Program-made: the position numbers and the translations under genes
The notes under the pieces: model-generated
What the model was told of the DNA's origin: nothing
Database searches by the model: none
The model's input: the letters and a program-made list of their open reading frames with translations, nothing else
Shown: positions 1-38,557 of the stretch, in pieces
How positions within the stretch are numbered: position 1 is the stretch's first letter
How the letters are laid out: each line of letters opens with the position of its first letter
DNA from: an uncultured Gammaproteobacteria bacterium
GTDB lineage: Bacteria > Patescibacteriota > Microgenomatia > UBA10105 > UBA927
Direction: 5' to 3'
Length of the DNA stretch: 61,367 bases
Assembly: GCA_964356315.1 (NCBI GenBank)
Contig: CAYHHA010000007.1
Span: 1 to 61,367 of the forward strand

Positions 1-1
1 C

Positions 2-157
2 ATGCCGCCTCCTTTCGGAGTTGAAAATGGCACGACCCCAGTAAAAGAGACTTTGGTGGATTTCCTCTATTTCTGCATCAGAAAACTCGCGGTTAAACCG
101 TTTCTGAAAATATTCACGTATTTTATGTACTTGTTCTGTATCTGTTGATTGGTTCAC
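2..157 (-). CDS. Small hypothetical protein (partial, runs off the left edge), overlapping the ATG (3..1) of a downstream gene
   Basis: GTG at 157 opens MNQSTDTEQVHKIREYFQKRFNREFSDAEIEEIHQSLFYWGRAIFNSERRRH with no stop before the edge; its 3' end contains GAAAGGAGG 4 nt before ATG at 3..1. Not in the ORF track. Confidence 0.6.
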   Translation of the reverse strand, partial: MNQSTDTEQVHKIREYFQKRFNREFSDAEIEEIHQSLFYWGRAIFNSERRRH

Positions 158-185
158 GGAGAACGTGAACCTCTGGAAGATTTAG

Positions 186-235
186 GCACCAAAAAAACAA
201 CTATATCGTTGTTTTCTAAGTTATTTTTTTGTGCC
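186..235. repeat. Long imperfect inverted repeat upstream of the left-edge operon
   Basis: ggcaccaaaaaaacaact ... agttatttttttgtgcc; further hairpins at 151-171, 313-326 and 393-415. Confidence 0.6.
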
Positions 236-496
236 CGTTTCCGTCGTCTGTTGTGCAGCCAACTGAACTAGTAAACCATTAGGGGGTTATGAGGGAGCCC
301 CTGCTTAAATACGGTATCACGATACCCTCAATCTGCAATATGCATATTCAAAATGGGAATGCATACACTTTGGTGAAAATATAAACGTGCGAAAATCCTA
401 CAAAGGTAAGGATTTATTTACTGTGGTAGTATAATTACAGCACTTAATATTGTCAAACTGGGTTGAATATTTTACCCAAAATATACTACTAAAATT

Positions 497-1108
497 ATGC
501 GTAATGAACCACTTGGTGTACCCTCCATTGAAACACTACCCTTTTTATCCCGCGAAAGTGGATTTATTACATATGATCCAACTAACCAACAAGTTGCAAC
601 ATGGTTAAAAGAAAACTGGACTTTTGGATATAACCCACTTGCTGTTTCAGAAGCAAACAGAACAAGACAGTTGCAACTTATCCACCCTGATGGACACACA
701 TATAATTACTATGAACCAGGTCATTCATTTGAACATTATAGAAAAAATGCTACGGGAAAAGAACCTCATTTTCTCGGGCATATCACACAAGTTGGCTGGG
801 TAGAATTAGCAATACGAAAAAACTCTGGACTAATCGGTAGTGAAGATAAAGGAATTTGGACCGCAGCATGGGATCCGCAACGATGGTTTCCAGGTTCTTT
901 CCCTAAAGATTTTGATTTTATAAATCCTCCAGATCGTTTTATAGAATTAGTATTTGATGCTGAAAAACTAAGACAACAAGGGTTAGTCGGATCAAAAGTT
1001 GAACCAATGGAGTATTACAAATTTAATACTCGAATACCAATGACAGCCCTTGTGGATACATCCTTGATGTATATTAATCAAGTTTTGGGATTAACAGTTC
1101 TAAACTAA
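497..1108 (+). CDS. Hypothetical protein, possible ADP-ribosyltransferase/Tpt1-like fold in the C-terminal half
   Basis: 203 aa; pattern GHIT...I...GL...IW...LVFD..KL...EY...RIP..AL. Confidence 0.55.
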   Translation: MRNEPLGVPSIETLPFLSRESGFITYDPTNQQVATWLKENWTFGYNPLAVSEANRTRQLQLIHPDGHTYNYYEPGHSFEHYRKNATGKEPHFLGHITQVGWVELAIRKNSGLIGSEDKGIWTAAWDPQRWFPGSFPKDFDFINPPDRFIELVFDAEKLRQQGLVGSKVEPMEYYKFNTRIPMTALVDTSLMYINQVLGLTVLN

Positions 1109-1149
1109 CCTAGAATTAGGTATGTTCCGATTTCGTCCCAGCACGTGTA
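1105..1149 (-). repeat. Boundary repeat family A, copy 1 (encodes YTCWDEIGTYLILG*)
   Basis: Homologous to 2445-2477 with mainly third-position differences. Confidence 0.75.
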
Positions 1150-1202
1150 CAAGCAAAGTGCACTCATAAGAAGAATTGATTACATATCAAACTTTATAGA
1201 TA

Positions 1203-2342
1203 TTACTCAAGCGATAAATCTATTACTTTTTCAATTGGAGCAATTACATGATCATTTCCCTGACTCCAACTATACTCAGAATTCGCAGGATTTGAATCCG
1301 GATATTGAGGAAAATCTAAAACAGTATATTCTGCAAATAATTTTTTTAACGTTGTGGCAATGATTGGCAAAGGAATGTCTTGATTTTCAGAGCGAATTTT
1401 CTGAACGACACCATGTATTGATTCTGATAAAAACCTGAACATGCGATCACTTGCTTCAGCTTCTGATTCTCCTTTTAGCTGTGCTGGAAATTCTGCAATT
1501 TTATGAAGATTTCCAAGAACTATCGCTGACGTTTCATTTGGTTTTACATTAGATCGTTTATAGTCAAGCATCGCTAGGCCAATTTTTGCATTTCTCATTG
1601 AAAGTCGTGCTGGATTATAGAGTATTGGTTTAGTAATATCCGCTATCATATTGATTAATGATGGAGCCGATTGTGTCACCTCTGTCTGCAAATTATTATT
1701 AAATATTGGTATTCGCAGTCCACTAACGGCAATTCCTGCTATAGCTGCCAAGCCAAATTTTAGAAATTGGCGTCTGGTCATAGGTACATTAAATAGACTT
1801 CTATTAGGATCATCTTGTGTACGCTCGGACAGAATTTTATACAGGAGTGAACCGGAAAATGCCGCAAGACCTGCTCCAACTGTTTCAATTCCATATGCTC
1901 TATTTAATTCACTACGTGCAAATGCATTCTGATCTATTGGTGGTTTAAATGATAAATCAATCTTCGATAGGATAGAAAAAACTTTATCCCACGACTGATG
2001 ATCGGTCAAAGAATTTCCCGAATCTTCGGTTATTTGTGGAATATCAGCACCTATGAGCCTAACTACTGATTCAGGAGCTTGAAAATGATTACTCTTTTCA
2101 GATGGGAAATATATATCCGCATAATTACTAAAAGATCCAGGACTTAGTGAGTCTGCGGCAATAATATTTGGCCTAGGATTGATTGATGCTATCGCCGATT
2201 GTACTTCGGTAGACCAAATGGTTCTGTTTAACGGAATATCACCTGTTGCATGTTCACCAAAAACTACATGAGTTGAATGAGTACCGTAAACTTCAGTTGT
2301 GCCTAAATTCAAATTCGATTCTTCACTTACTTGATCAAACAT
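1203..2342 (-). CDS. Hypothetical membrane protein with internal twin-arginine-like motif
   Basis: 379 aa; hydrophobic segment then MTRRQFLKFGLAAIAG mid-protein. Confidence 0.7.
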   Translation of the reverse strand: MFDQVSEESNLNLGTTEVYGTHSTHVVFGEHATGDIPLNRTIWSTEVQSAIASINPRPNIIAADSLSPGSFSNYADIYFPSEKSNHFQAPESVVRLIGADIPQITEDSGNSLTDHQSWDKVFSILSKIDLSFKPPIDQNAFARSELNRAYGIETVGAGLAAFSGSLLYKILSERTQDDPNRSLFNVPMTRRQFLKFGLAAIAGIAVSGLRIPIFNNNLQTEVTQSAPSLINMIADITKPILYNPARLSMRNAKIGLAMLDYKRSNVKPNETSAIVLGNLHKIAEFPAQLKGESEAEASDRMFRFLSESIHGVVQKIRSENQDIPLPIIATTLKKLFAEYTVLDFPQYPDSNPANSEYSWSQGNDHVIAPIEKVIDLSLE

Positions 2343-2414
2343 ACGTTCATATTACATTACAGGCATGAAATTTGTAATATATATTTCAGTATAGACATTC
2401 TAGTAATTTTTCTT

Positions 2415-2477
2415 TTAAATACATATTATTGATGTATTTGATGCTAAATACGTTCCAATAGCGTCCCAACAGGTGTA
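2415..2477 (-). repeat. Boundary repeat family A, copy 2 (encodes YTCWDAIGTYLASNTSIICI*)
   Basis: Homologous to 1117-1149. Confidence 0.75.
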
Positions 2478-2546
2478 TCTAAACTGACGCATACCAATTG
2501 AATAGTAATATAGCTTCATTCCAACAAAAACAAGCGTTCGAGATCC

Positions 2547-2577
2547 CATTTAGCCTCAATTTTAACTTGAGGCTAAA
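2547..2577. repeat. Perfect 12-bp inverted repeat with 7-bp spacer
   Basis: atttagcctcaa-ttttaac-ttgaggctaaat; the ttagcctcaa arm recurs near 3631, 4665 (inverted), 6518 and 10323. Confidence 0.8.
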
Positions 2578-2731
2578 TAACGAGACACCCCACCCTGTTT
2601 CGAACTAAAGTACAAAATCCGTCAAGAGTATCCATCGATCACATATGCCTTAATATTCATCTTCTACAAAGCAACCTATATCAGGTTTCAAAATAGTATT
2701 GTGGCGAATTACCATATTATATGGATTTATA

Positions 2732-2760
2732 TTGACTAATGTAGCACATTGTGCTACGAT
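2732..2760 (+). promoter_or_regulatory. Sigma70 promoter with overlapping palindromic operator for TA pair 1
   Basis: TTGACT-17-TACGAT; palindrome gtagcaca-t-tgtgctac at 2741-2757; ATG 7 nt downstream. Confidence 0.75.
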
Positions 2761-2767
2761 TTCTTAA

Positions 2768-3052
2768 ATGATATTTGTACGCAAACTCATTTGGGACACA
2801 TGGAATATACATCATATTGCAAAACATCATATATTACCGGATGAGATTGAAGAAATTTGTCATGGGTCACCATTAATATTACAAGGACAACAAAAGAAAC
2901 GTTTAGTTTTAATCGGCCTAACAGACGAGCAATCTATATTGACAGTTGTGCTTGAATCACAAGGACACGGAGTATACTACCCAATAACAGCATATCCATC
3001 AGATTCACATGACATTACATTATATAAACATTTAAAAGGAGGTAAAAAATGA
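2768..3052 (+). CDS. BrnT-family (DUF497) type II toxin
   Basis: 94 aa, WD..N..HI.KH.I...E.EE and YPITAY motifs. Confidence 0.85.
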   Translation: MIFVRKLIWDTWNIHHIAKHHILPDEIEEICHGSPLILQGQQKKRLVLIGLTDEQSILTVVLESQGHGVYYPITAYPSDSHDITLYKHLKGGKK

Positions 3053-3330
3053 AAACAAAAACTATTCAAAAAAGTAGAATTCCACAATTTGTAAATAGAC
3101 AAGAAGAGGCTAAGTTTTGGGAGAGTCATAGCATATCTGACTTTATAGACGAACTTAAGCCTGTCAATGTGCGTTTTGCTAAAAACCTATCTGAAGGTCT
3201 TCATATTCGATTGAACTCACAAACATTACAGACTCTTCGCGAAAAAGCGAAGAATAAAGGAATTGGCCCTACAACACTTGTTCGCATGTGGATATTGGAA
3301 CAACTCCAATCAGTGCAGCAGCAGATATAG
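3049..3330 (+). CDS. CopG/BrnA-type antitoxin
   Basis: IPQF...EEAKFWESHS and IRL...A..KGIG..TL.RMWI; ATGA overlap and GGAGG SD. Confidence 0.85.
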   Translation: MKTKTIQKSRIPQFVNRQEEAKFWESHSISDFIDELKPVNVRFAKNLSEGLHIRLNSQTLQTLREKAKNKGIGPTTLVRMWILEQLQSVQQQI

Positions 3331-3354
3331 AAATATTTAATGTTCTAACGAGTA

Positions 3355-3448
3355 TCAATCGTTTTCGACGACTTCGCTTTCGTTGTTAGATGCTTCTATT
3401 AACTTAGTTAAAAACTCAAAAACTGGTTCGAAATAAAATGCACTAGGG
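3355..3448 (-). repeat. Boundary repeat family B, copy 1 (24-bp core 3425-3448; encodes PSAFYFEPVFEFLTKLIEASNNESEVVEND*)
   Basis: ggttcgaaataaaatgcactaggg identical at 3425, 4614 and 6307. Confidence 0.85.
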
Positions 3449-3456
3449 GTACATAG

Positions 3457-3487
3457 GAAAAACGCTCAGAAAATCTGAGCGTTTTTC
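3457..3487. terminator. Bidirectional intrinsic terminator-like hairpin
   Basis: gaaaaacgctcaga-aaa-tctgagcgtttttc. Confidence 0.7.
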
Positions 3488-3497
3488 GTATATTCTA

Positions 3498-3602
3498 GTC
3501 GAATTTGGACCGGTCCCCGGTTCGCCGTCCAGCAGTAGACATTTTGATTCATAGAGAAATGTCGTATTGCTGGTGAGTGCCGAGAGTTCTCGGCAATCCG
3601 GC
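3498..3602 (+). ncRNA. Candidate structured RNA/ssDNA, copy 1
   Basis: Stems ccagcagta/tattgctgg, gacattt/aaatgtc, tgccgaga/tctcggca; pairing is conserved in the copy at 6381-6486. Confidence 0.45.
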
Positions 3603-3862
3603 TGGAGATACTAAACTTTGTTGATATGTATTAGCCTCAAGGTTGTGCAAAAACCCTGATGTGACTAGCCCTGCCCCCTGGCAGGCAGGTATTTCACACC
3701 CGGCGTGTGTAAGTGCAGTCATTAATAAATCAAATAAGCTGATATATCAACGAGAATAGGGTTTGATATGATCGAGCGATTTCAATCTATTCAGCCCCAA
3801 ACCCCAACCGGACTCGAACAAATATTTTTAAATACCCTTGATAATTATTCTATATTACTGTA

Positions 3863-3890
3863 TTGACAATCAATGTACAGATGATATTAT
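3863..3890 (+). promoter_or_regulatory. Sigma70 promoter of TA pair 2
   Basis: TTGACA-16-TATTAT with extended TG; ATG 6 nt downstream. Confidence 0.65.
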
Positions 3891-3896
3891 GCAGAT

Positions 3897-4205
3897 ATGG
3901 CTTTTCGTATTAAATTTAACGAGGAAAAAAACCAACTACTAAAAGCCACGAGAGGAGTTAGTTTCGATACTGTGATTATCTCTATCAAGGAAGGCGGATT
4001 GTTAGCTGATATTCATCATCCAAACCTAAAACACTCCAAACAAAAAATATACGTTATTGTGGTTGAAGAGTATGTATACGCTGTTCCATATGTAAAAAAC
4101 AATGAAAGAAAAGAAATTTTTCTAAAGACTGTCTACCCAAGCAGGGCATTAACCAAAAAATATTTGATGAAAGGAGGTAAATATGAAAAAAATAAATCCA
4201 AATGA
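3897..4205 (+). CDS. BrnT-like type II toxin
   Basis: FNEEKN.LLK..RG.SF...HPN...Y.Y.VPYV...IFLKT.YPSR. Confidence 0.85.
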   Translation: MAFRIKFNEEKNQLLKATRGVSFDTVIISIKEGGLLADIHHPNLKHSKQKIYVIVVEEYVYAVPYVKNNERKEIFLKTVYPSRALTKKYLMKGGKYEKNKSK

Positions 4206-4494
4206 TTTATTCACTAATATATATTTAGATGCAGAAGAGAAATCTTTAGAAACAGCATTTGAAAATGATGAATTTGAAGAGGATTCTGATTTTCTTAACA
4301 CGAAGACTATGCTTGAAGAGGCTGCAAAGAATTACTTGGAATTAAATACGGCAAAACCGATTACTATTCGAGTAAATCAATTTGACCTCATTAAGGTAAA
4401 GGCGAGAGCGAAACGGAAACAAATTCCATACCAAACACTACTTGGATCCTTAATTCATCAATATGCTGAAGGAAAACAAGACGTAAGTTTATAA
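4183..4494 (+). CDS. CopG/RHH-type antitoxin
   Basis: ITIRV...DL..VK..A....IPYQTL..S.IHQY; GGAGG SD. Confidence 0.85.
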   Translation: MKKINPNDLFTNIYLDAEEKSLETAFENDEFEEDSDFLNTKTMLEEAAKNYLELNTAKPITIRVNQFDLIKVKARAKRKQIPYQTLLGSLIHQYAEGKQDVSL

Positions 4495-4549
4495 GATTTA
4501 AGTATTTTTTGATCCTAACACTTTTAGTGATAGACGGAGTAAGCAATAA

Positions 4550-4637
4550 TCAATCAGTTTCCAACATAGCTTTTTGGTATTCTTCCATTAATTTACCTAA
4601 CCATTCAAGCACAGGTTCGAAATAAAATGCACTAGGG
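4550..4637 (-). repeat. Boundary repeat family B, copy 2 (encodes PSAFYFEPVLEWLGKLMEEYQKAMLETD*)
   Basis: 24-bp core at 4614-4637; extended match ccatt(c/g)aagcaca to copy 3. Confidence 0.85.
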
Positions 4638-4771
4638 GCACTGAAACTGACGCACACTAATTTATTGAGGCTAATTACATTAGTTTATGGATTCTAATTC
4701 CATAATTTAGTCAATATTTATGCATTTAAAATCTATAACCTATCATCACGGAGTGCAAAAGACTAATTTGG

Positions 4772-5446
4772 ATGACTAAACATGCACTTGACACGTTTCT
4801 AATTACTCCTGATAATAGACAGTATATGGAAACGTATTCGCGTATTGCTTTGAGCAATCTTCTTGTTTCATCCCCGTTGAGATTATTTGACCTCACCACC
4901 TTAAAGCAGACACTCAATATCCGAAGTGAAAGTGCTTTCTACCGTATCCTAAATCAATTTGTATCAGAGAAGGTATTAGCAATCGTGAAGCCTGGCGTCT
5001 ACTACAAAGTGAATACCCCACCTGATCAGTACGAAATTGCCAACTATCTTATCCGACCTTCGTATATCTCATTCGAAACTGCTCTGAATCACCACGGTAT
5101 TTTACCTCAATTCCCTCTCATTACTACATCAGCAACAACGCAAAAAACTCAAAAGAAAACAGTGTTCAATGGCGATTACACCTATACCCATCTCTCTCCA
5201 AAAATGTTTTTTGGCTTCAAAAAATATTCAGAACATCTCTTGGCTGAACCAGAAAAATGCCTGATAGACTACGTATATCTACGGATGAAACTCGGCACGA
5301 AACCAGATATGAATGAGTGGGATTTTGAACACGTTGATACCAAAAAGCTTTCCCTCTATTTAACATACATGGAGGATGTCAAAGGATATCAATCCGTAGT
5401 TAAAATTATTTCAGAACAAACACCATGTTTACCAACGACGAAATAA
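4772..5446 (+). CDS. Type IV TA AbiEi-family antitoxin (true start may be 4826)
   Basis: wHTH N-terminus, PSYISFETAL.HHG and AEPEK.L.DY motifs. Confidence 0.85.
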   Translation: MTKHALDTFLITPDNRQYMETYSRIALSNLLVSSPLRLFDLTTLKQTLNIRSESAFYRILNQFVSEKVLAIVKPGVYYKVNTPPDQYEIANYLIRPSYISFETALNHHGILPQFPLITTSATTQKTQKKTVFNGDYTYTHLSPKMFFGFKKYSEHLLAEPEKCLIDYVYLRMKLGTKPDMNEWDFEHVDTKKLSLYLTYMEDVKGYQSVVKIISEQTPCLPTTK

Positions 5447-6204
5447 CCAAGCGCGCCAATAAAGTGCAGATCAGCCCGGTTGTAATTTACCGTGAATTTG
5501 CACAGTTATTGTTTCTTGAACGCTTATCACAGTCAAAAATGAATGCAAACTTCATTTTTAAAGGCGGTACTGCCATTAGACTTCTCATGAAAGGCGATCG
5601 CTTTTCTGAAGATCTTGATTTTACTGTTACAGACCTCACAAGCGATCAGGTCGTTTATATATGCACATCTCTTGTCAGACAAATGAATTCCGAAGTAACC
5701 GTATCGATGAAATCTACTCCTTCACCATCAGGTCTTTCGCTCAAATTATATATTGCAGCACCATTTCAAAAACAAACCATACCTATCAAGCTAGACTTCT
5801 CATTCCGTGAAATTTCAATTGATGTAATTCATAGCACAATTATTTGCGATTATCCGATCATTTTCCGAAATCTGTGTTATTACTATTCACCTCGTGAAAT
5901 GATTGCTGAAAAAGTTCGTGCCCTTTTACACCGTCAGAAGGGTCGTGATCTCTACGATCTGTGGTTCTTGCTTTCCATGCAGGCGGAATTTGATGAACAG
6001 TTGATCGCGAAAAAATTAGCATACTATTCAGAAACTTTTTCAAAATTAGAATTCATTGAAAAAATACAAAGTTTTCCGAAGAAAGATTTCGTTGCGGATC
6101 TACTTCCCTTCATTGGTAAAAAAGAACGAGATTCTCTTGATACCCTCTACGGGGTCATTCAGTCGTATCTCATGCAAAAATTAAATGAAGTAACTGCAAA
6201 ATAA
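5425..6204 (+). CDS. AbiEii/AbiGii nucleotidyltransferase toxin
   Basis: FKGGTAIRL, RFSEDLDF, AEK.RA, RDLYDL. Confidence 0.9.
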   Translation: MFTNDEITKRANKVQISPVVIYREFAQLLFLERLSQSKMNANFIFKGGTAIRLLMKGDRFSEDLDFTVTDLTSDQVVYICTSLVRQMNSEVTVSMKSTPSPSGLSLKLYIAAPFQKQTIPIKLDFSFREISIDVIHSTIICDYPIIFRNLCYYYSPREMIAEKVRALLHRQKGRDLYDLWFLLSMQAEFDEQLIAKKLAYYSETFSKLEFIEKIQSFPKKDFVADLLPFIGKKERDSLDTLYGVIQSYLMQKLNEVTAK

Positions 6205-6267
6205 GATATAATCATCACAGAGGACTAGCAATCCTTTTTAGATTACATTAACTGCCTCAGATTTGTT

Positions 6268-6330
6268 CTAATATACTTCTATTAACTCATCCACCATTGA
6301 AGCACAGGTTCGAAATAAAATGCACTAGGG
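6268..6330 (-). repeat. Boundary repeat family B, copy 3 (PSAFYFEPVLQW, then after a 1-nt shift DELIEVY*)
   Basis: 24-bp core at 6307-6330. Confidence 0.8.
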
Positions 6331-6588
6331 ATACTGTATAAATAATCTCGCATCATAGCGGGATTTTTTATGCACTCTCGGTGGGATTTGGACAGGCTTA
6401 CCGGTTCGCAGTCCAGCGGTAGATAATTCGATTCCCAGAGAATTGTCGTACTGCTGGTGAGTGCCGAGTGCGCTCGACAATCTGGCTTGGGGGGGGGTAC
6501 AAATTTAGTTGAAACAATTAGCCTCAAATATCCCGATGTTTCTAGCCCTGCCTGCCGACAGGCAGGTATTTCACACACGGTGTGTGTA
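6307..6588. repeat. ~290-bp composite non-coding element, copy 2
   Basis: Colinear with 3425-3712; right part nearly identical to 10320-10391. Confidence 0.85.
6381..6486 (+). ncRNA. Candidate structured RNA/ssDNA, copy 2
   Basis: Stems ccagcggta/tactgctgg, gataattc/gaattgtc, tgccgag/ctcgaca. Confidence 0.45.
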
Positions 6589-6596
6589 ATAATGTA

Positions 6597-8612
6597 TTAC
6601 TTGGAATTAAGCTCACTACTTTTGGATGCAGGTTCTGTAGTTAATAACAGTTTAATATCTTTTATAATCGTCAAAATATCTTCTGAATCCTCATCGGATG
6701 TATAGTATATTTGGTCACCATTTTTCTGAACCTGCTCATAAATACCCTTCCCATATTGCTTAACAAATAAATCTTTAACTATCGACTCCTTCTTATTGAA
6801 ATACGATTCAATTATCTCTTCTTTAGGAAATCGATTAGCTAGCAACGAAACAACTTCTAAAAGCTCTGGATAACCATCATACTTTGGATTTGAAAAGATT
6901 AATGATTGTGATTTTAATAATTTAGCTAGTAGTTCAGAAGTCAAGAAATCCGTAATACCTTCATTTAAAAATTTTGGGTATGATCTTTCTGAGTAATACG
7001 TTCTGAAGTGGAGCATCTCATGTAATAAAGTATGGATATAATAAGACATTCTATATTCCTGTCCGGGATAGAGTTTAATATATATATTGTTTGGTGAATC
7101 AAAGACTCCAGCCTGAATTTCAGGTGTTACAGGATCTTTCAGAAAATTTGAGTATGATCTTTGCCATGCAGCCAAATTCAAATTCCATTTTGGCCTAACG
7201 TCTATGTACTCTTTAAGATAACTTTCGCTTTGGTTCTTATCTGAAATTATCTGGCGTAGGCTGTTTTCAATCGTTTGTTTCCCCTCCCTGCAAATAGATT
7301 CATCCTTTCCTAGGTTTGATTCACAAGCAGATATCCAACCCTTTCCATAGGATTCGTATTTACGATACTCTCCATCAGAAGCGCTAATAGCGTTTTTCAA
7401 ATCTATAATCGAATTATCAATTTCTTTTATAGTGTTGCGTACATCTTGTATTCCATACAACAAACTATTCTCTATTTCTTTTTCTTTCTTCTTTTGCACG
7501 AGGATGTACTCATCGACTGGAAGAAATGATACTATTGGCTTTTTTAAAGATTTGTTTAAATAGTCTTTATAGTTGGAGTCTAGTAACTTACTAGCGAGAA
7601 CTATGGATAATTTTTCAATTGTGATGTTGCTTGGATTATTTGAAATTAAAGTATGCGATGGAAACAATAAGACTTCAAATTTAACTTTTTCTTTTAACGA
7701 AGCTGACTCTGACGCATAAAGTAGGCTTGGAATAATTACAGAACGATATAATGTATCTTTATCCGTATGTGAAATCTTCTTATATTGCAATACGACTTCG
7801 GTAACTGGGTCGTATTCAAAAAATGCCGGAATCGCTAGTTCCTTTTCTATAGCTTCACTAATACCTTGAATCGATTCAATTATACCTACCTTAGATCTTT
7901 CCTCTGAAGAGGATAATATATCAATTGAGGTAATAATTTCTTGATTTGCTTGTTTAGTTAACCCAAATATTACGTAAGTTGGAACGTAAGAATAGAGTGC
8001 AAATATTATAACTGGGTAGGCTTGTTGAATTAGTAAAAATATTAATAAAAATCTTTTTGCTACCACCCTCCGTAATTTGTAAATAACCCACAGAGAAAAA
8101 GCCACACTAAAGACCAGAAGCAGCGCTATAAAAATCCCGTCGTATCCACAAAAGGACCAAGAGCTCGTACTTAATGAACAAGTAAATTTCTGTAATAGCA
8201 AAGAAGTTGGGTTAGTTATGAATGAGTCAGCGACATCAAAAAGTTTACTTGTAATCGCAAAATTCCACTTCTGATTATATGATACCCAGAGTGATCCAGC
8301 CGTGCAAATTGAAAATATAGCCAAATATGCTAAATATCGTAAATTAAAAAACAGTTGCAGCACTGCATTCCTGAGGCTATATTTTTTTGCGTTCTTGACC
8401 TTTTTTTTACGTTTAGAACGTAAAGGGGATGTTGCGTGTTTATGTTTTTTACGTAAAAAATAGTAAATAGTTGATAAACCAAAAAAAGGCAAAAACCAAA
8501 GGAGTGAACTAAATGATTTATTAATAATTGACTGAACAATTCCGCCAAAACCCACACCTATTATAATTGCTACTACCAGTAGAGTAATACCTTTTATAAT
8601 TAGATTAATCAT
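6597..8612 (-). CDS. Polytopic membrane protein with coiled coil and C-terminal zincin metallopeptidase domain
   Basis: Several N-terminal TM segments; HTLLHEMLH...FLNEGITD. Confidence 0.75.
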   Translation of the reverse strand: MINLIIKGITLLVVAIIIGVGFGGIVQSIINKSFSSLLWFLPFFGLSTIYYFLRKKHKHATSPLRSKRKKKVKNAKKYSLRNAVLQLFFNLRYLAYLAIFSICTAGSLWVSYNQKWNFAITSKLFDVADSFITNPTSLLLQKFTCSLSTSSWSFCGYDGIFIALLLVFSVAFSLWVIYKLRRVVAKRFLLIFLLIQQAYPVIIFALYSYVPTYVIFGLTKQANQEIITSIDILSSSEERSKVGIIESIQGISEAIEKELAIPAFFEYDPVTEVVLQYKKISHTDKDTLYRSVIIPSLLYASESASLKEKVKFEVLLFPSHTLISNNPSNITIEKLSIVLASKLLDSNYKDYLNKSLKKPIVSFLPVDEYILVQKKKEKEIENSLLYGIQDVRNTIKEIDNSIIDLKNAISASDGEYRKYESYGKGWISACESNLGKDESICREGKQTIENSLRQIISDKNQSESYLKEYIDVRPKWNLNLAAWQRSYSNFLKDPVTPEIQAGVFDSPNNIYIKLYPGQEYRMSYYIHTLLHEMLHFRTYYSERSYPKFLNEGITDFLTSELLAKLLKSQSLIFSNPKYDGYPELLEVVSLLANRFPKEEIIESYFNKKESIVKDLFVKQYGKGIYEQVQKNGDQIYYTSDEDSEDILTIIKDIKLLLTTEPASKSSELNSK

Positions 8613-13756: not shown

Positions 13757-14347
13757 ATGGACTTAACGATCGGCGTTTTATCGTTTCATGGTGATGTATT
13801 GGAACACATACAGGCAACCATGAGAGCTGCGGAAAAACTTCACACACCCGTAACGGTTATCCCTGTCCGGACAAAGGAAGCGCTTTCAAAAGTCGCTGGG
13901 CTAATTTTACCTGGAGGCGAAAGTACAACAATGCATAAATTATGTGTTCGGGAAGGAATGTGGGAGCAAATGAAATCGATCCCGTTTATTTTTGGCACAT
14001 GTGCAGGCGCCATAATGCTCGCAAAAAAAATTCTTCATAAAGCGGAAGGTCAGGAATCACTCGAGAGAATAGGGATAGATATAGATAGAAATGCATATGG
14101 AAGACAAACTGATTCGTTTCAGGAGATACTTTCCACAACGCTCGGAGAAGTAACCGCAGTCTATATCCGCGCCCCAAAAATAGTATCCATCAAACCATCT
14201 ATTACAATTTTTGCAGGCACAAACGAAAACGTTCTCGCTTGCGAAGAAATCTCAGACGGTCTCTATAATCTTGCTACCTGTTTTCACCCAGAACTCACAA
14301 CCACCCTGTTTCATGAATATTTTCTGAAAAAAATTATTAACTCATAA
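13757..14347 (+). CDS. pdxT: PLP synthase glutaminase subunit
   Basis: PGGEST, GTCAG, RNAYGRQ, FHPE. Confidence 0.95.
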   Translation: MDLTIGVLSFHGDVLEHIQATMRAAEKLHTPVTVIPVRTKEALSKVAGLILPGGESTTMHKLCVREGMWEQMKSIPFIFGTCAGAIMLAKKILHKAEGQESLERIGIDIDRNAYGRQTDSFQEILSTTLGEVTAVYIRAPKIVSIKPSITIFAGTNENVLACEEISDGLYNLATCFHPELTTTLFHEYFLKKIINS

Positions 14348-14440: not shown

Positions 14441-15382
14441 ATGCACCAAGATTCACGTATTCATAAAAAGCAATCGAGAAAAATACGATATAGTGTGTAC
14501 TCAGTCCTTATTTTATTGATTCTTGTTAGCACAATAACACTATTTTTTTCTCAGGTAAAAATTATATCTCCTATTCCGGACATGCAAACAAAAAAAATAT
14601 CATTTTTGAATTTTTTTAAAAGGGAAAAAAACCCAGAAGATCTCAAAGAGCGGATAAAGAAAGCAGTGAATAGTGAATGGACAAATTATTCTGTACTTGT
14701 AAAAGACTTACACTCTCCATTTACCGCGAGCATTAACGAATCTCTGATATACAATGCAGCGTCGGTAAATAAAGTTCCAATTCTTTCGGCGGTCTATGAT
14801 ATGGCTAAGAAAGGCGAAATAGATTTCGACAAAATCATAACAATCCAGCAGGATGATATTCAGGATTATGGAACGGGAAAAATCCGCTATGATCCTCCTG
14901 GAACCACATACTCCATCAAAACCCTTATACAGCTTATGATTCAAAAAAGTGATAATACCGCAGCATTTATCTTGGGAAATTACATTGTCGGATTGGACGT
15001 TGTTCAGCAATATGTAAATTCCATCGGACTTACTCAAACAGATATTATAGATAACAAAACATCAAACAAAGATATGGCAATTTTATTTGAAAAAATATAT
15101 AAAAAGCAGATAACAACACCTGCACTCTCAGAAGAATTATTAGGACTTCTTACGGATAGTGATTTTGAAGACAGACTACCGGCACAACTGCCAAAAGGAG
15201 CTATCGTGTACCATAAAATTGGAACAGGTACGGGCGTCGTCCATGACGCTGGAATCGTTTTGCATGGAAATACTGCATACTATATAGGAATATTTACAAG
15301 CGATATCACCGATGAAGAACAGGCCTCTGTTTTGCTTTCCAAAGTGTCAAAAACTGTGTACGATTTTATGTACGAAAAATAA
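14441..15382 (+). CDS. Membrane-anchored serine hydrolase, class A beta-lactamase-related
   Basis: SVNK, SDN and HKIG motifs; N-terminal TM. Confidence 0.85.
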   Translation: MHQDSRIHKKQSRKIRYSVYSVLILLILVSTITLFFSQVKIISPIPDMQTKKISFLNFFKREKNPEDLKERIKKAVNSEWTNYSVLVKDLHSPFTASINESLIYNAASVNKVPILSAVYDMAKKGEIDFDKIITIQQDDIQDYGTGKIRYDPPGTTYSIKTLIQLMIQKSDNTAAFILGNYIVGLDVVQQYVNSIGLTQTDIIDNKTSNKDMAILFEKIYKKQITTPALSEELLGLLTDSDFEDRLPAQLPKGAIVYHKIGTGTGVVHDAGIVLHGNTAYYIGIFTSDITDEEQASVLLSKVSKTVYDFMYEK

Positions 15383-15391
15383 TCAGCCACT

Positions 15392-37489: not shown

Positions 37490-38557
37490 ATGACTTATAT
37501 AAAGCGTAGTATTCTTTTTTTGATGTGTGCTATAACGGTATATCGATGCTTTTATTTTGACTGGAATAGACCTGCCGAAAGATGGGATGAGCAAACAAAT
37601 ATTGATGTTATCAACAAGTCATCAAAAATAAAACAATTTCCCCAGCTTTTTTATGGAAATAAACCATTTTTTGAAAAACCACCTATTTGGTATATGCTTT
37701 CTGTGATTGTTTCTCGAGCAATTCATGCACCGACACTCCAGATTATCAGATTGTTTAGTGCCACATGCGGATTTATTACCATTTTAGTAGTTTGGTATAT
37801 TTCTGTGCGCTGGTGGGGATTTACGTCAGGAGTATTGTCTTGGGTAATCCTACTATCTACAAATCATTTATTTTTAACTAATCCAGCAGGGGTATTTTCG
37901 ACACATACACTTCGCTCTGCGGACTCTGAGGGATTTTTTATACTGTGTATTGTTCTTTCTAGTATTGTGTCAACAAAAATAGGATATTCAAACATCTCTG
38001 CTATAGCGTCTGGGATTTTAACTGGACTGGCTATTCTTTCAAAAAGTCCCATTGGAATCATTCCTTTGCTCTGCGCTACGTGCTATATCCTTTTCCAAAG
38101 AAATAACTCCACAGCAATAAAACAGGCTATCATAGCTTGGTGTTTTGCTCTTTGTATGTATGCGTTATGGGTTCTCTATATGTCTAAAATATACGGGTTT
38201 ACGTTTCTAAATACCTTTTTTTACTATCATTTATTTCTTCGGGCTTCCACCCCGCTTGAGTCTCATAATCAATCATTGTTTTATTATTTCAGACTTCTTT
38301 TTTCCAAAGAATTATTTGTATTTATGGAACTCTATATTTTATCTCTCGTGATATACATGCGATCGAGCTCACTTCGATCAAATATTCAACTTGCAAATAT
38401 TTTCAGTATTTCAATATGTTTTATAGTCATCCCAACACTTGTACAAACAAAGCTTGCCTGGTATATATTTCCGTTCTACCCATTTGCTGCACTTCTGATA
38501 GCCGGTACAGTCACTCCATACCTATCATTCAGGGCATTTTCAGGAAAGCGCGTATAA
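37490..38557 (+). CDS. ArnT/PMT-family (GT-C) glycosyltransferase
   Basis: WDE, FEKPP, LSK, TKLAWY..P.YP. Confidence 0.85.
   Translation: MTYIKRSILFLMCAITVYRCFYFDWNRPAERWDEQTNIDVINKSSKIKQFPQLFYGNKPFFEKPPIWYMLSVIVSRAIHAPTLQIIRLFSATCGFITILVVWYISVRWWGFTSGVLSWVILLSTNHLFLTNPAGVFSTHTLRSADSEGFFILCIVLSSIVSTKIGYSNISAIASGILTGLAILSKSPIGIIPLLCATCYILFQRNNSTAIKQAIIAWCFALCMYALWVLYMSKIYGFTFLNTFFYYHLFLRASTPLESHNQSLFYYFRLLFSKELFVFMELYILSLVIYMRSSSLRSNIQLANIFSISICFIVIPTLVQTKLAWYIFPFYPFAALLIAGTVTPYLSFRAFSGKRV

Follow-up and report, generated by a model that had tools for sequence, protein, structure and literature searches.

In the 61,367-nt stretch of DNA analysed here (the window; contig CAYHHA010000007.1 of assembly GCA_964356315.1), two copies of an 11-codon motif, called motif A, lie on the minus strand near the start of the contig. 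Motif A most likely represents the P half, contributed by the element, of attR sites; these would have been left behind by a large serine recombinase (LSR) whose integration target is the 3' end of tRNA-Glu genes. This reading is carried by the anatomy of the elements, by the continuity of a reading frame across their junctions, by homologous tails on full-length LSRs, and by a 5-bp offset between half-sites. The coordinates of the features are collected in Table 1.

Copy A of the window reads TAC ACG TGC TGG GAC GAA ATC GGA ACA TAC CTA (YTCWDEIGTYL), and copy B reads TAC ACC TGT TGG GAC GCT ATT GGA ACG TAT TTA (YTCWDAIGTYL). The two are identical at 25 of 33 bases, and their codons differ by six synonymous changes and one non-synonymous change (GAA/GCT), as the original prediction, made from the letters of the window, had noted. 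For the two copies, the method of Nei and Gojobori (NG86) gave a dN of 0.059, with dS saturated. Taken as a whole, the original prediction is partly supported, as detailed below.

A serine recombinase gene opposed to tRNA-Glu

An LSR element lies beside tRNA-Glu(ttc) on contig C15 of the same genome. Its recombinase open reading frame (ORF) has the resolvase, recombinase and zinc-ribbon architecture of large serine recombinases (PF00239, 3.5e-14; PF07508, 9.1e-11; PF13408, 4.1e-4, below the curated cut-off), and Y7, R9, K10 and S11 are nearly invariant among 30 homologues. Beyond the LSR, the element carries a rolling-circle replication protein (Rep) and a 246-aa gene, and its far end is marked by a copy of motif A. 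The LSR gene runs antisense into the tRNA gene, its last 14 codons being antisense tRNA (TGG TAC CCC ... TGA, with the TGA at 29020-29018). The motif at the other end is on the LSR strand and starts with the same TAC as the LSR junction. This TAC is the first codon of the motif frame, and (30517-29056) mod 3 = 0, so that a fusion of the ends at the GTAC common to both would leave the frame intact. By frame arithmetic only, a circular C15 element would encode an LSR ending in GEFRDW, then, across the junction, YTCWDEIGTYISTVF and a stop codon. The attL (...GGGGGTACCAATC...) and attR (...CACGTGTACAAGC...) of this element have only GTAC in common and thus lack a long direct repeat; the crossover dinucleotide probably lies inside this GTAC core. 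The contigs of four public sequencing runs, in which rare forms are dropped, were compared with the C15 element, and neither a joint of the tRNA junction with the motif nor an empty site or a circle was found, a result that in such contigs speaks neither for nor against the model.

Copy A of the window is 94.7% identical to the C15 copy over 38 nt. In a blastn comparison, window 1-189 was 90% identical to C15:31402-31590, which is the interior of the LSR/Rep element; copy A was therefore assigned as the attR of a second element. The rest of this part (window 190-1116) holds cargo unlike that of C15, including the plus-strand ORF 497..1108 (203 aa, without a match in Pfam). Each of the two elements terminates in the motif, and CAAGCAAA comes next. 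Contigs of the runs X1 and X3 exit the C15 element at L139:6590 or 6525 and go on with letters present at window ~120-225. In addition, contig C12 finishes with a second tRNA-Glu gene (ctc) and, after it, an LSR 3' end that is the same as that of C15. These data lead us to infer an arrangement of tRNA-Glu(ctc), then LSR-Rep (collapsed by the assembler), then window 1-1116 and finally copy A, which would link contigs C12 and C7; copy A would then be the attR of an LSR/Rep element of ~4 kb integrated at the tRNA-Glu(ctc) of the C12 end.

Copy B, 1.3 kb beyond copy A, is read as the attR scar of an older, gutted element. The only ORF between the two copies is, as predicted, that at 1203..2342, and it is read as surviving cargo of the older decayed element; the twin-arginine-like stretch in the middle of its product may point to an internal true start or to a fusion. 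The idea that the two copies are the two ends of one single-gene cassette was rejected, since each copy marks the distal (attR) end of its own integration event.

Tails of the recombinase homologues

For the C15 LSR, the 120 best homologues were compared in their tails. After a conserved W, most of the tails are antisense-tRNA translations, for example W/RRGRDSNPR (the slash marks the junction), and the closest relatives have YPQPDSNRRFTG after the junction. Tails like motif A were found on the full ORF in three of the 120 homologues, namely P0040 (W/LRVWNDVGTYFVNL), P0021 (W/RWLVDYVGTYYKYI) and P0026 (W/RRVWDNYRTYSVYPV). At the P0021 locus (L219), the DNA of the tail (GAC TAT GTT GGA ACT TAC) is close to motif A, and no tRNA is present in 12 kb; the relatives of P0021 at 50-74% identity run into tRNA-Ser. 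The original prediction had considered that homologues might occur fused to a long ORF, and this is the case, with the homologous tail being the C-terminus of the LSR. An independent attL/attR pair was found at L222, where an LSR runs into tRNA-Ser and a same-strand scar, RGAWNDVGTFINLITI followed by a stop codon, lies 3.6 kb upstream of the LSR start.

The LSR family was found in 40 of the 61 relatives searched. The long ORF ends at most 150 nt from an opposite-strand tRNA gene in 21 of the 30 fetched loci, and twelve tRNA species are involved. A search of 401 genomes of the class for the pattern W-xxx-W[DN]x[IV]GT gave 6 matches in 5 genomes, and the four examined were short scars of 30-47 aa rather than ends of intact LSRs; two matches in G108 were left out of these results. 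A search for related loci with the C15 LSR alone gave no matches.

Scars of sister LSR subfamilies were also observed in other Microgenomatia (L225, which is G001:C1:640042, L223, L226 and L227), with W/RRAWDEIGT, W/LRVWDDVGTY and W/RRRWDDVGTF. The distal WD.[IV]GT is common to them, and the three codons nearest to the junction differ, as if tracking the target tRNA.

Unoccupied sites and proximity to tRNA-Glu

The C15 copy of the motif is located near tdk and dinB, and the same setting is present in the genomes G002 and G031. In G002, tRNA-Glu is followed after 212 nt by the motif in reverse complement, then by a hairpin and a conserved flank of ~220 nt, and there is no LSR element; in C15, 3.8 kb (LSR, Rep and the 246-aa gene) is present in place of the 212 nt. 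In G028, the hairpin and flank that come after a motif copy also come directly after a native tRNA-Glu(ctc), located 1 kb from that copy. The flank of the native tRNA and that of the attR are identical through GTAC and then diverge; the motif thus occupies the place of the tRNA 3' end of the unoccupied site, as an attR would. A tRNA-Glu gene lies 0.2-2.5 kb from the motif in 8 of the 12 motif-bearing loci scanned, and it is convergent in seven.

The conserved segment of ~220 nt is GC-rich and has a terminal terminator-like hairpin; it is native after tRNA-Glu genes and travels with attR scars. One of its stems (CCAGCAG...CTGCTGG) has compensatory changes between genera. The segment could be transcribed together with the tRNA as a novel RNA, or could serve as a flank to which a protein binds. 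A structured RNA was considered and set aside: a search of window 1-8000 against Rfam gave no matches at E<=1, RNAalifold on six flank copies gave only -1.95 kcal/mol, and by inspection the wobble and mismatch patterns favour different strands in different stems.

Half-site geometry

Half-site positions were counted outward from the TA of GTAC. In the tRNA-Glu half-site, the T-loop box GTTCGAAT is at positions 12-19; in motif A, GTTCCGAT is at positions 17-24, that is, 5 bp farther from the junction. In the tRNA-Ser subfamily, the corresponding half-site lengths are 18 versus 23 nt. Another motif of the window, family C (see below), has GTTCGAAA at positions 17-24. In published work, the motif of the zinc-ribbon domain is at positions 16-24 in attP half-sites and 5 bp nearer to the centre in attB (Rutherford et al. 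2013, PMC3783163). The element half-site is likewise ~5 bp longer here, where only one half of each site was compared, and the offset between motif A and the tRNA box equals the attP-versus-attB offset described there.

Distribution and substitution pattern of motif A

The likeness of the copies exceeds what chance would give. A codon-degenerate pattern of motif A gave 5 matches in the 1.7-Mb genome and none for the reversed control. A Hamming scan of the whole genome, which is blind to codon position, gave the same five copies at 29-33 of 33 matches and four decayed copies at 21-26 of 33 on contig C24 (15556, 17641, 18643 and 19607); the background of the scan reaches 22 (19 windows) to 23 (2 windows). 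A third weak match in the window (38443..38411, antisense within a membrane-protein ORF) was discarded, since its 23 of 33 matches are inside this background. Among the five good copies, 8 of the 11 third codon positions are variable versus 5 of the 22 first and second positions (Fisher one-sided p = 0.008). The copies of relatives were left out of this test, because the patterns used for their collection allow any base at third positions.

Motif A is present in 6 of the 61 relatives searched. In 185,579 species genomes, it was found in seven stretches, of which five are from Candidatus Gottesmanbacteria and the other two are contigs of G041 and G002; it was also found in 18 stretches of metagenome contigs and in none of the viral contigs. 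A looser collection pattern gave ~120 matches, mostly unrelated. A comparison of window 1-8000 with genomes of the same genus for synteny gave no DNA match. Motif A is a lineage-restricted family with five good and four decayed copies in this genome of the Candidate Phyla Radiation (CPR; Gottesmanbacteria).

The original prediction had proposed that selection acts on the peptide. The pattern of substitutions does reflect such selection, but the chromosomal copies are not themselves translated genes. The synonymous differences between copies A and B would then reflect divergence of the source elements while the sequence was still coding, not selection on the chromosomal copies.

Motif A copies as peptide genes or DNA sites

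An alternative, already raised with the original prediction for peptides of ~20-25 aa, is that the copies are independent genes for peptides of 14-25 aa (a micropeptide, a leader peptide or the precursor of a ribosomally synthesized and post-translationally modified peptide), conserved for the function of the peptide itself. The period-3 substitutions would fit such genes, and in 13 of 28 non-redundant instances an ATG, GTG or TTG is immediately 5' of TAC; one copy in G028 is 126 nt upstream of a radical-SAM-like gene. The predicted in-frame ATGs at 1167 and 2492 of the window exist and lie in non-homologous host-side DNA. Nevertheless, an in-frame ATG, GTG or TTG before a stop is present in only 18 of the 28 instances and absent from 10, and in one instance a TAG adjoins the TAC on its 5' side; five instances (L150, L153, L156, L157 and L163) look like an unrelated set with conserved flanks of their own and were kept in the count. 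The decayed copies have an in-frame stop (TAG) or a 1-nt deletion, no Shine-Dalgarno-like sequence was seen by eye, and the neighbouring genes are unrelated to one another. Some copies are found where two genes converge (window copy A; C24:15556), and others immediately past terminator hairpins, often at a distance of 5-7 nt. The same tail is also found on full-length recombinases. A conserved start, an initiation signal and a frame open in all copies are thus lacking, and motif A is not a free-standing peptide gene; we regard the peptide-gene explanation as hardly credible. The NTG before TAC is read as part of the junction sequence. Pfam searches of ORFs running through the flank or the motif gave no families.

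A non-coding regulatory site is very improbable, be it a box where a response regulator binds two direct TTGGRAC repeats spaced by 11 bp or a promoter element common to a regulon of cassette genes. The motif does contain the direct repeat TTGGGAC-N4-TTGGAAC, and in about 9 of 13 good copies it lies 22-126 nt upstream of a same-strand gene. There is, however, no same-strand downstream gene at three good copies, namely window copy A, L134:6995 and L136:5773. On contig C24, six successive intergenic gaps hold the motif in a single orientation regardless of the strand of the genes, and some of them are between convergent gene ends, a placement that also argues against a promoter or operator. By inspection, the distance from the motif to -10-like boxes varies, and a promoter or sigma-factor reading was rejected on this inconsistent spacing and on the copies between convergent genes. 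A regulatory site would also leave unexplained why variation is confined to third positions, why the motif is in frame with the LSR and why it lies opposite tRNA-Glu.

As a separate observation, genes downstream of motif copies in relatives (L137:5760-5792, L164 and L142) have a TATAAT box ~7 nt before ATG and no visible ribosome-binding site, which suggests leaderless mRNAs in this lineage.

Little probability is also given to an origin of the copies as att-core repeats of tyrosine-integrase islands, which would be duplicated 3' pieces of the tRNA, or as attC-like sites in an array of the integron type. The same-orientation arrays at cassette boundaries, the toxin-antitoxin cargo, the closeness of copies to tRNA-Glu and the five tyrosine recombinases of the genome are in keeping with this idea, as is a separate 13.5-kb island on C15 with a 45-nt tRNA-Glu repeat and a tyrosine integrase. 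Against it, motif A is not a copy of the tRNA: only GTAC is common at the junction, the T-loop-like box is 5 nt farther out, and the 5-nt insertion and few identities set it apart from a tRNA-fragment repeat such as that at C15:15381-15425. No tyrosine recombinase is on C7 or C24 and none adjoins the arrays. In the motif-bounded element of C15, the recombinase at the end near the tRNA is of the serine type. An integron attC site would have paired inverse-core and core sites around an imperfect palindrome and an adjacent IntI-type tyrosine recombinase; motif A is not palindromic and, by eye and with no attC model run, does not fit the attC core.

In the 13.5-kb island, tRNA-Glu(ttc) is at one side, the 45-nt copy of the 5' part of the tRNA (C15:15381-15425) is at the other, and the tyrosine integrase is at C15:15992-16414. 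This island would be a separate, classical tRNA-targeted island beside the LSR element.

Two further candidates were rejected. A tag like that of transfer-messenger RNA (tmRNA) was dismissed, as the tmRNA gene is elsewhere (C1:109103-109533), and so was an association with IS200 or REP-associated tyrosine transposase (RAYT) elements, as only the one on C15 of six Y1_Tnp genes is near a copy, and no TnpB was found.

Proposed mechanism and points against it

We propose that motif A arises from an LSR family, common in Microgenomatia, which would insert small elements at tRNA 3' ends with the recombinase gene antisense into the tRNA. The attP would lie inside the last 12-20 codons of this gene, and the ORF of the circular element would end in W/YTCWD(E/A)IGTY and further codons up to a stop. 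Integration, presumably catalysed by the LSR, would cut the ORF at the GTAC core; the integrated gene would gain a substitute tail from the antisense tRNA (W/YPQPDSDRRFTG and a stop codon), and the original tail codons would be carried to the far end of the element as motif A. The 33 bases would be under two constraints, as coding sequence and as recombinase binding site, and these two constraints would give synonymous-looking differences between copies from diverged elements. The original prediction had also stated that similarity stops abruptly at the Tyr codon; by eye, no obvious likeness between the copies exists upstream of TAC, and the likeness would end there because the crossover lies there.

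Several points weigh against this explanation. Genome, metagenome and viral contigs gave no intact attP, for which an LSR ORF would have to end in exact motif A, and no long ORF is upstream of the motif in 7 genome and 18 metagenome stretches (viral contigs gave no stretches). A word search for long proteins with the window peptide gave three candidates, none scored, which is weak evidence. The evidence for tails on the full ORF stems from sister subfamilies aimed at other tRNAs. On visual inspection, motif A is not mirrored by the P' arm (the 3' end of the LSR beside the tRNA), so that the imperfect dyad symmetry expected of attP is not evident, and this arm carries an ATTCG-like box at the host-type distance. 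Locus L165 has tRNA-Glu on the wrong side of the motif. Contig C24 has six same-orientation copies over 4 kb, with no tRNA on the contig and no LSR match; tandem scars of this kind are not predicted by simple attP x attB integration, and arrays also hold the hairpin and flank more than once (G028; window 3419-3639 and 6302-6526). Tandem scars would result if attL could serve as a weak target for further integration, which is a possibility. The locus L219, with an intact-tail LSR 3.7 kb downstream of another scar, would fit a P-P' junction.

It is conceivable, albeit unlikely, that the exchange of tails is a built-in switch, with the native YTCWD.IGTY tail made only in the circular element and the antisense-tRNA tail once integrated. 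If so, the two forms of the enzyme could differ in activity, stability or directionality, and integration would alter its own catalyst; the family would also supply serine integrases whose tRNA targets can be predicted and whose attP sites annotate themselves.

Comparison with known systems

The elements resemble the LSR attP/attB system modelled for the integrase of the Listeria A118 family (PMC3783163) in the resolvase, recombinase and zinc-ribbon architecture, in the short sites with few identical bases at the crossover and hybrid attL/attR products, and in the distal box 5 bp farther out in the element half-site than in the host half-site. Unlike in that system, the host site here is the tRNA 3' end read antisense, the attP is inside the recombinase ORF with the C-terminal tail exchanged on integration, the scars are in tandem, and the hosts are ultra-small CPR bacteria. 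In titles and abstracts, we found nothing on serine recombinases of Patescibacteria that target tRNA genes, nor on recombinase ORFs with an internal attP, and a search of the literature on integrons or serine recombinases in Patescibacteria gave nothing relevant.

The sites usually ascribed to serine integrases are protein-coding or intergenic. The integrase genes of SSV1-type archaeal viruses are split by integration into a tRNA gene, and the SSV1-type tyrosine integrase is the closest precedent for a split integrase gene. The common features are the attP within the integrase gene, the tRNA target and the piece of the ORF at the other end of the element. Unlike SSV1, in which a tyrosine recombinase gene is divided into two large inactive parts, the recombinase here is of the serine type, displacement affects no more than the last 12-20 codons, and the antisense tRNA supplies a replacement tail and stop codon. 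The tandem islands of tyrosine integrases at tRNA and tmRNA genes are similar in having same-orientation boundary repeats beside a tRNA gene, variable cargo including toxin-antitoxin modules, and decaying old copies; here, in contrast, the repeat is the element's own half-site, not a duplicated tRNA, and the recombinase is a serine recombinase.

If this explanation is correct, an isolated stretch of 11 codons under apparent purifying selection, with no gene around it, can be the footprint of site-specific recombination, and short frames of this kind beside tRNA genes should not be annotated as peptide genes. The CPR serine-recombinase family would have three linked traits: targeting of the antisense tRNA 3' end, an attP in its own frame, and dated scars of successive insertions. 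The attP, attB and crossover of the family could be read directly from genomes as testable candidates, and the published 5-bp rule for attP and attB could be checked on many natural pairs of sites.

Other features of the window

The family C motif, present in three copies, reads GGTTCGAAATAAAATGCACTAGGGGTAC on the plus strand. Counted from TA, its positions 1-7 equal tRNA-Glu(ctc), and five extra bases and then GTTCGAAA follow; in the LSR frame it gives only Y-P-stop. Family C is read as the P arm of another LSR type aimed at tRNA-Glu(ctc). Its scars separate toxin-antitoxin modules, namely two BrnT/CopG-like pairs and AbiEi/AbiEii; these three defence or addiction modules are in a row between scars (window 2768-6204).

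Table 1. Coordinates of the features in the window, on contig C15 and in related loci
Feature	Location	Strand	Remarks
Distal part of second LSR/rolling-circle Rep element	window 1..1116		From blastn and run contigs
Motif A, copy A	window 1117..1149	-	Probable element-side (P) half-site of attR; displaced last codons of LSR gene; frame extends to TAG 1107..1105
GTAC junction core	window 1147..1150		Likeness to other copies and to C15 LSR/tRNA junction stops here
379-aa ORF	window 1203..2342	-	Sole Pfam match a Tat-signal-like (twin-arginine) stretch, residues 188-206, just below cut-off
Motif A, copy B	window 2445..2477	-	Probable older attR-type scar; frame extends to TAA 2417..2415
BrnT-like/CopG-antitoxin pair	window 2768-3330
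Family C motif, copy 1	window 3425..3452	-	Hairpin and ~220-nt conserved flank (3419-3639) on plus strand
Second pair, CopG-like antitoxin	window 3897-4494
Family C motif, copy 2	window 4614..4641	-	Without conserved flank
AbiEi-like/AbiEii	window 4772-6204
Family C motif, copy 3	window 6307..6334	-	Hairpin and conserved flank (6302-6526)
tRNA-Glu(ttc)	C15:28983-29059	+
LSR ORF	C15:30517->29018	-	Resolvase, Recombinase and Zn_ribbon_recom domains
Motif A	C15:32928->32896	-	Far end of element, 3.8 kb from tRNA end; hairpin and conserved flank next
~220-nt flank copies	window 3419-3639, 6302-6526; C15:32897-33115; L134:12790-12967, 14165-14331, 15250-15389; L136 ~5600-5770; L137 ~5540-5730

Two kinds of short repeats were also noted. 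Copies of the word TTTAGCCTCAA and of its complement occur throughout the genome (e.g. window 2548-2578, 3631, 4666, 6519 and 10324), with TAGCCTCAA present in 38 copies in the genome versus ~13 expected. These words are often hairpins or tandem pairs just beside motif A copies, and five of them are within 700 nt at C13:16276-16934, ~2 kb from a tyrosine recombinase. The other is a short intergenic hairpin module, TTACACACACCGGGTGTGAAATAG, often followed by ACACATCAGGA, at window 3690-3712 and 6570-6590 and at C60:5581-5629 (three in tandem), with more TTACACACACCGGGTGTGAAATAG hairpin sites at C10:46090-46163, C24:21665 and C17:24757. It is a candidate for a module like the repetitive extragenic palindromes (REP), the genome having six Y1 (IS200/RAYT-like) transposase genes.

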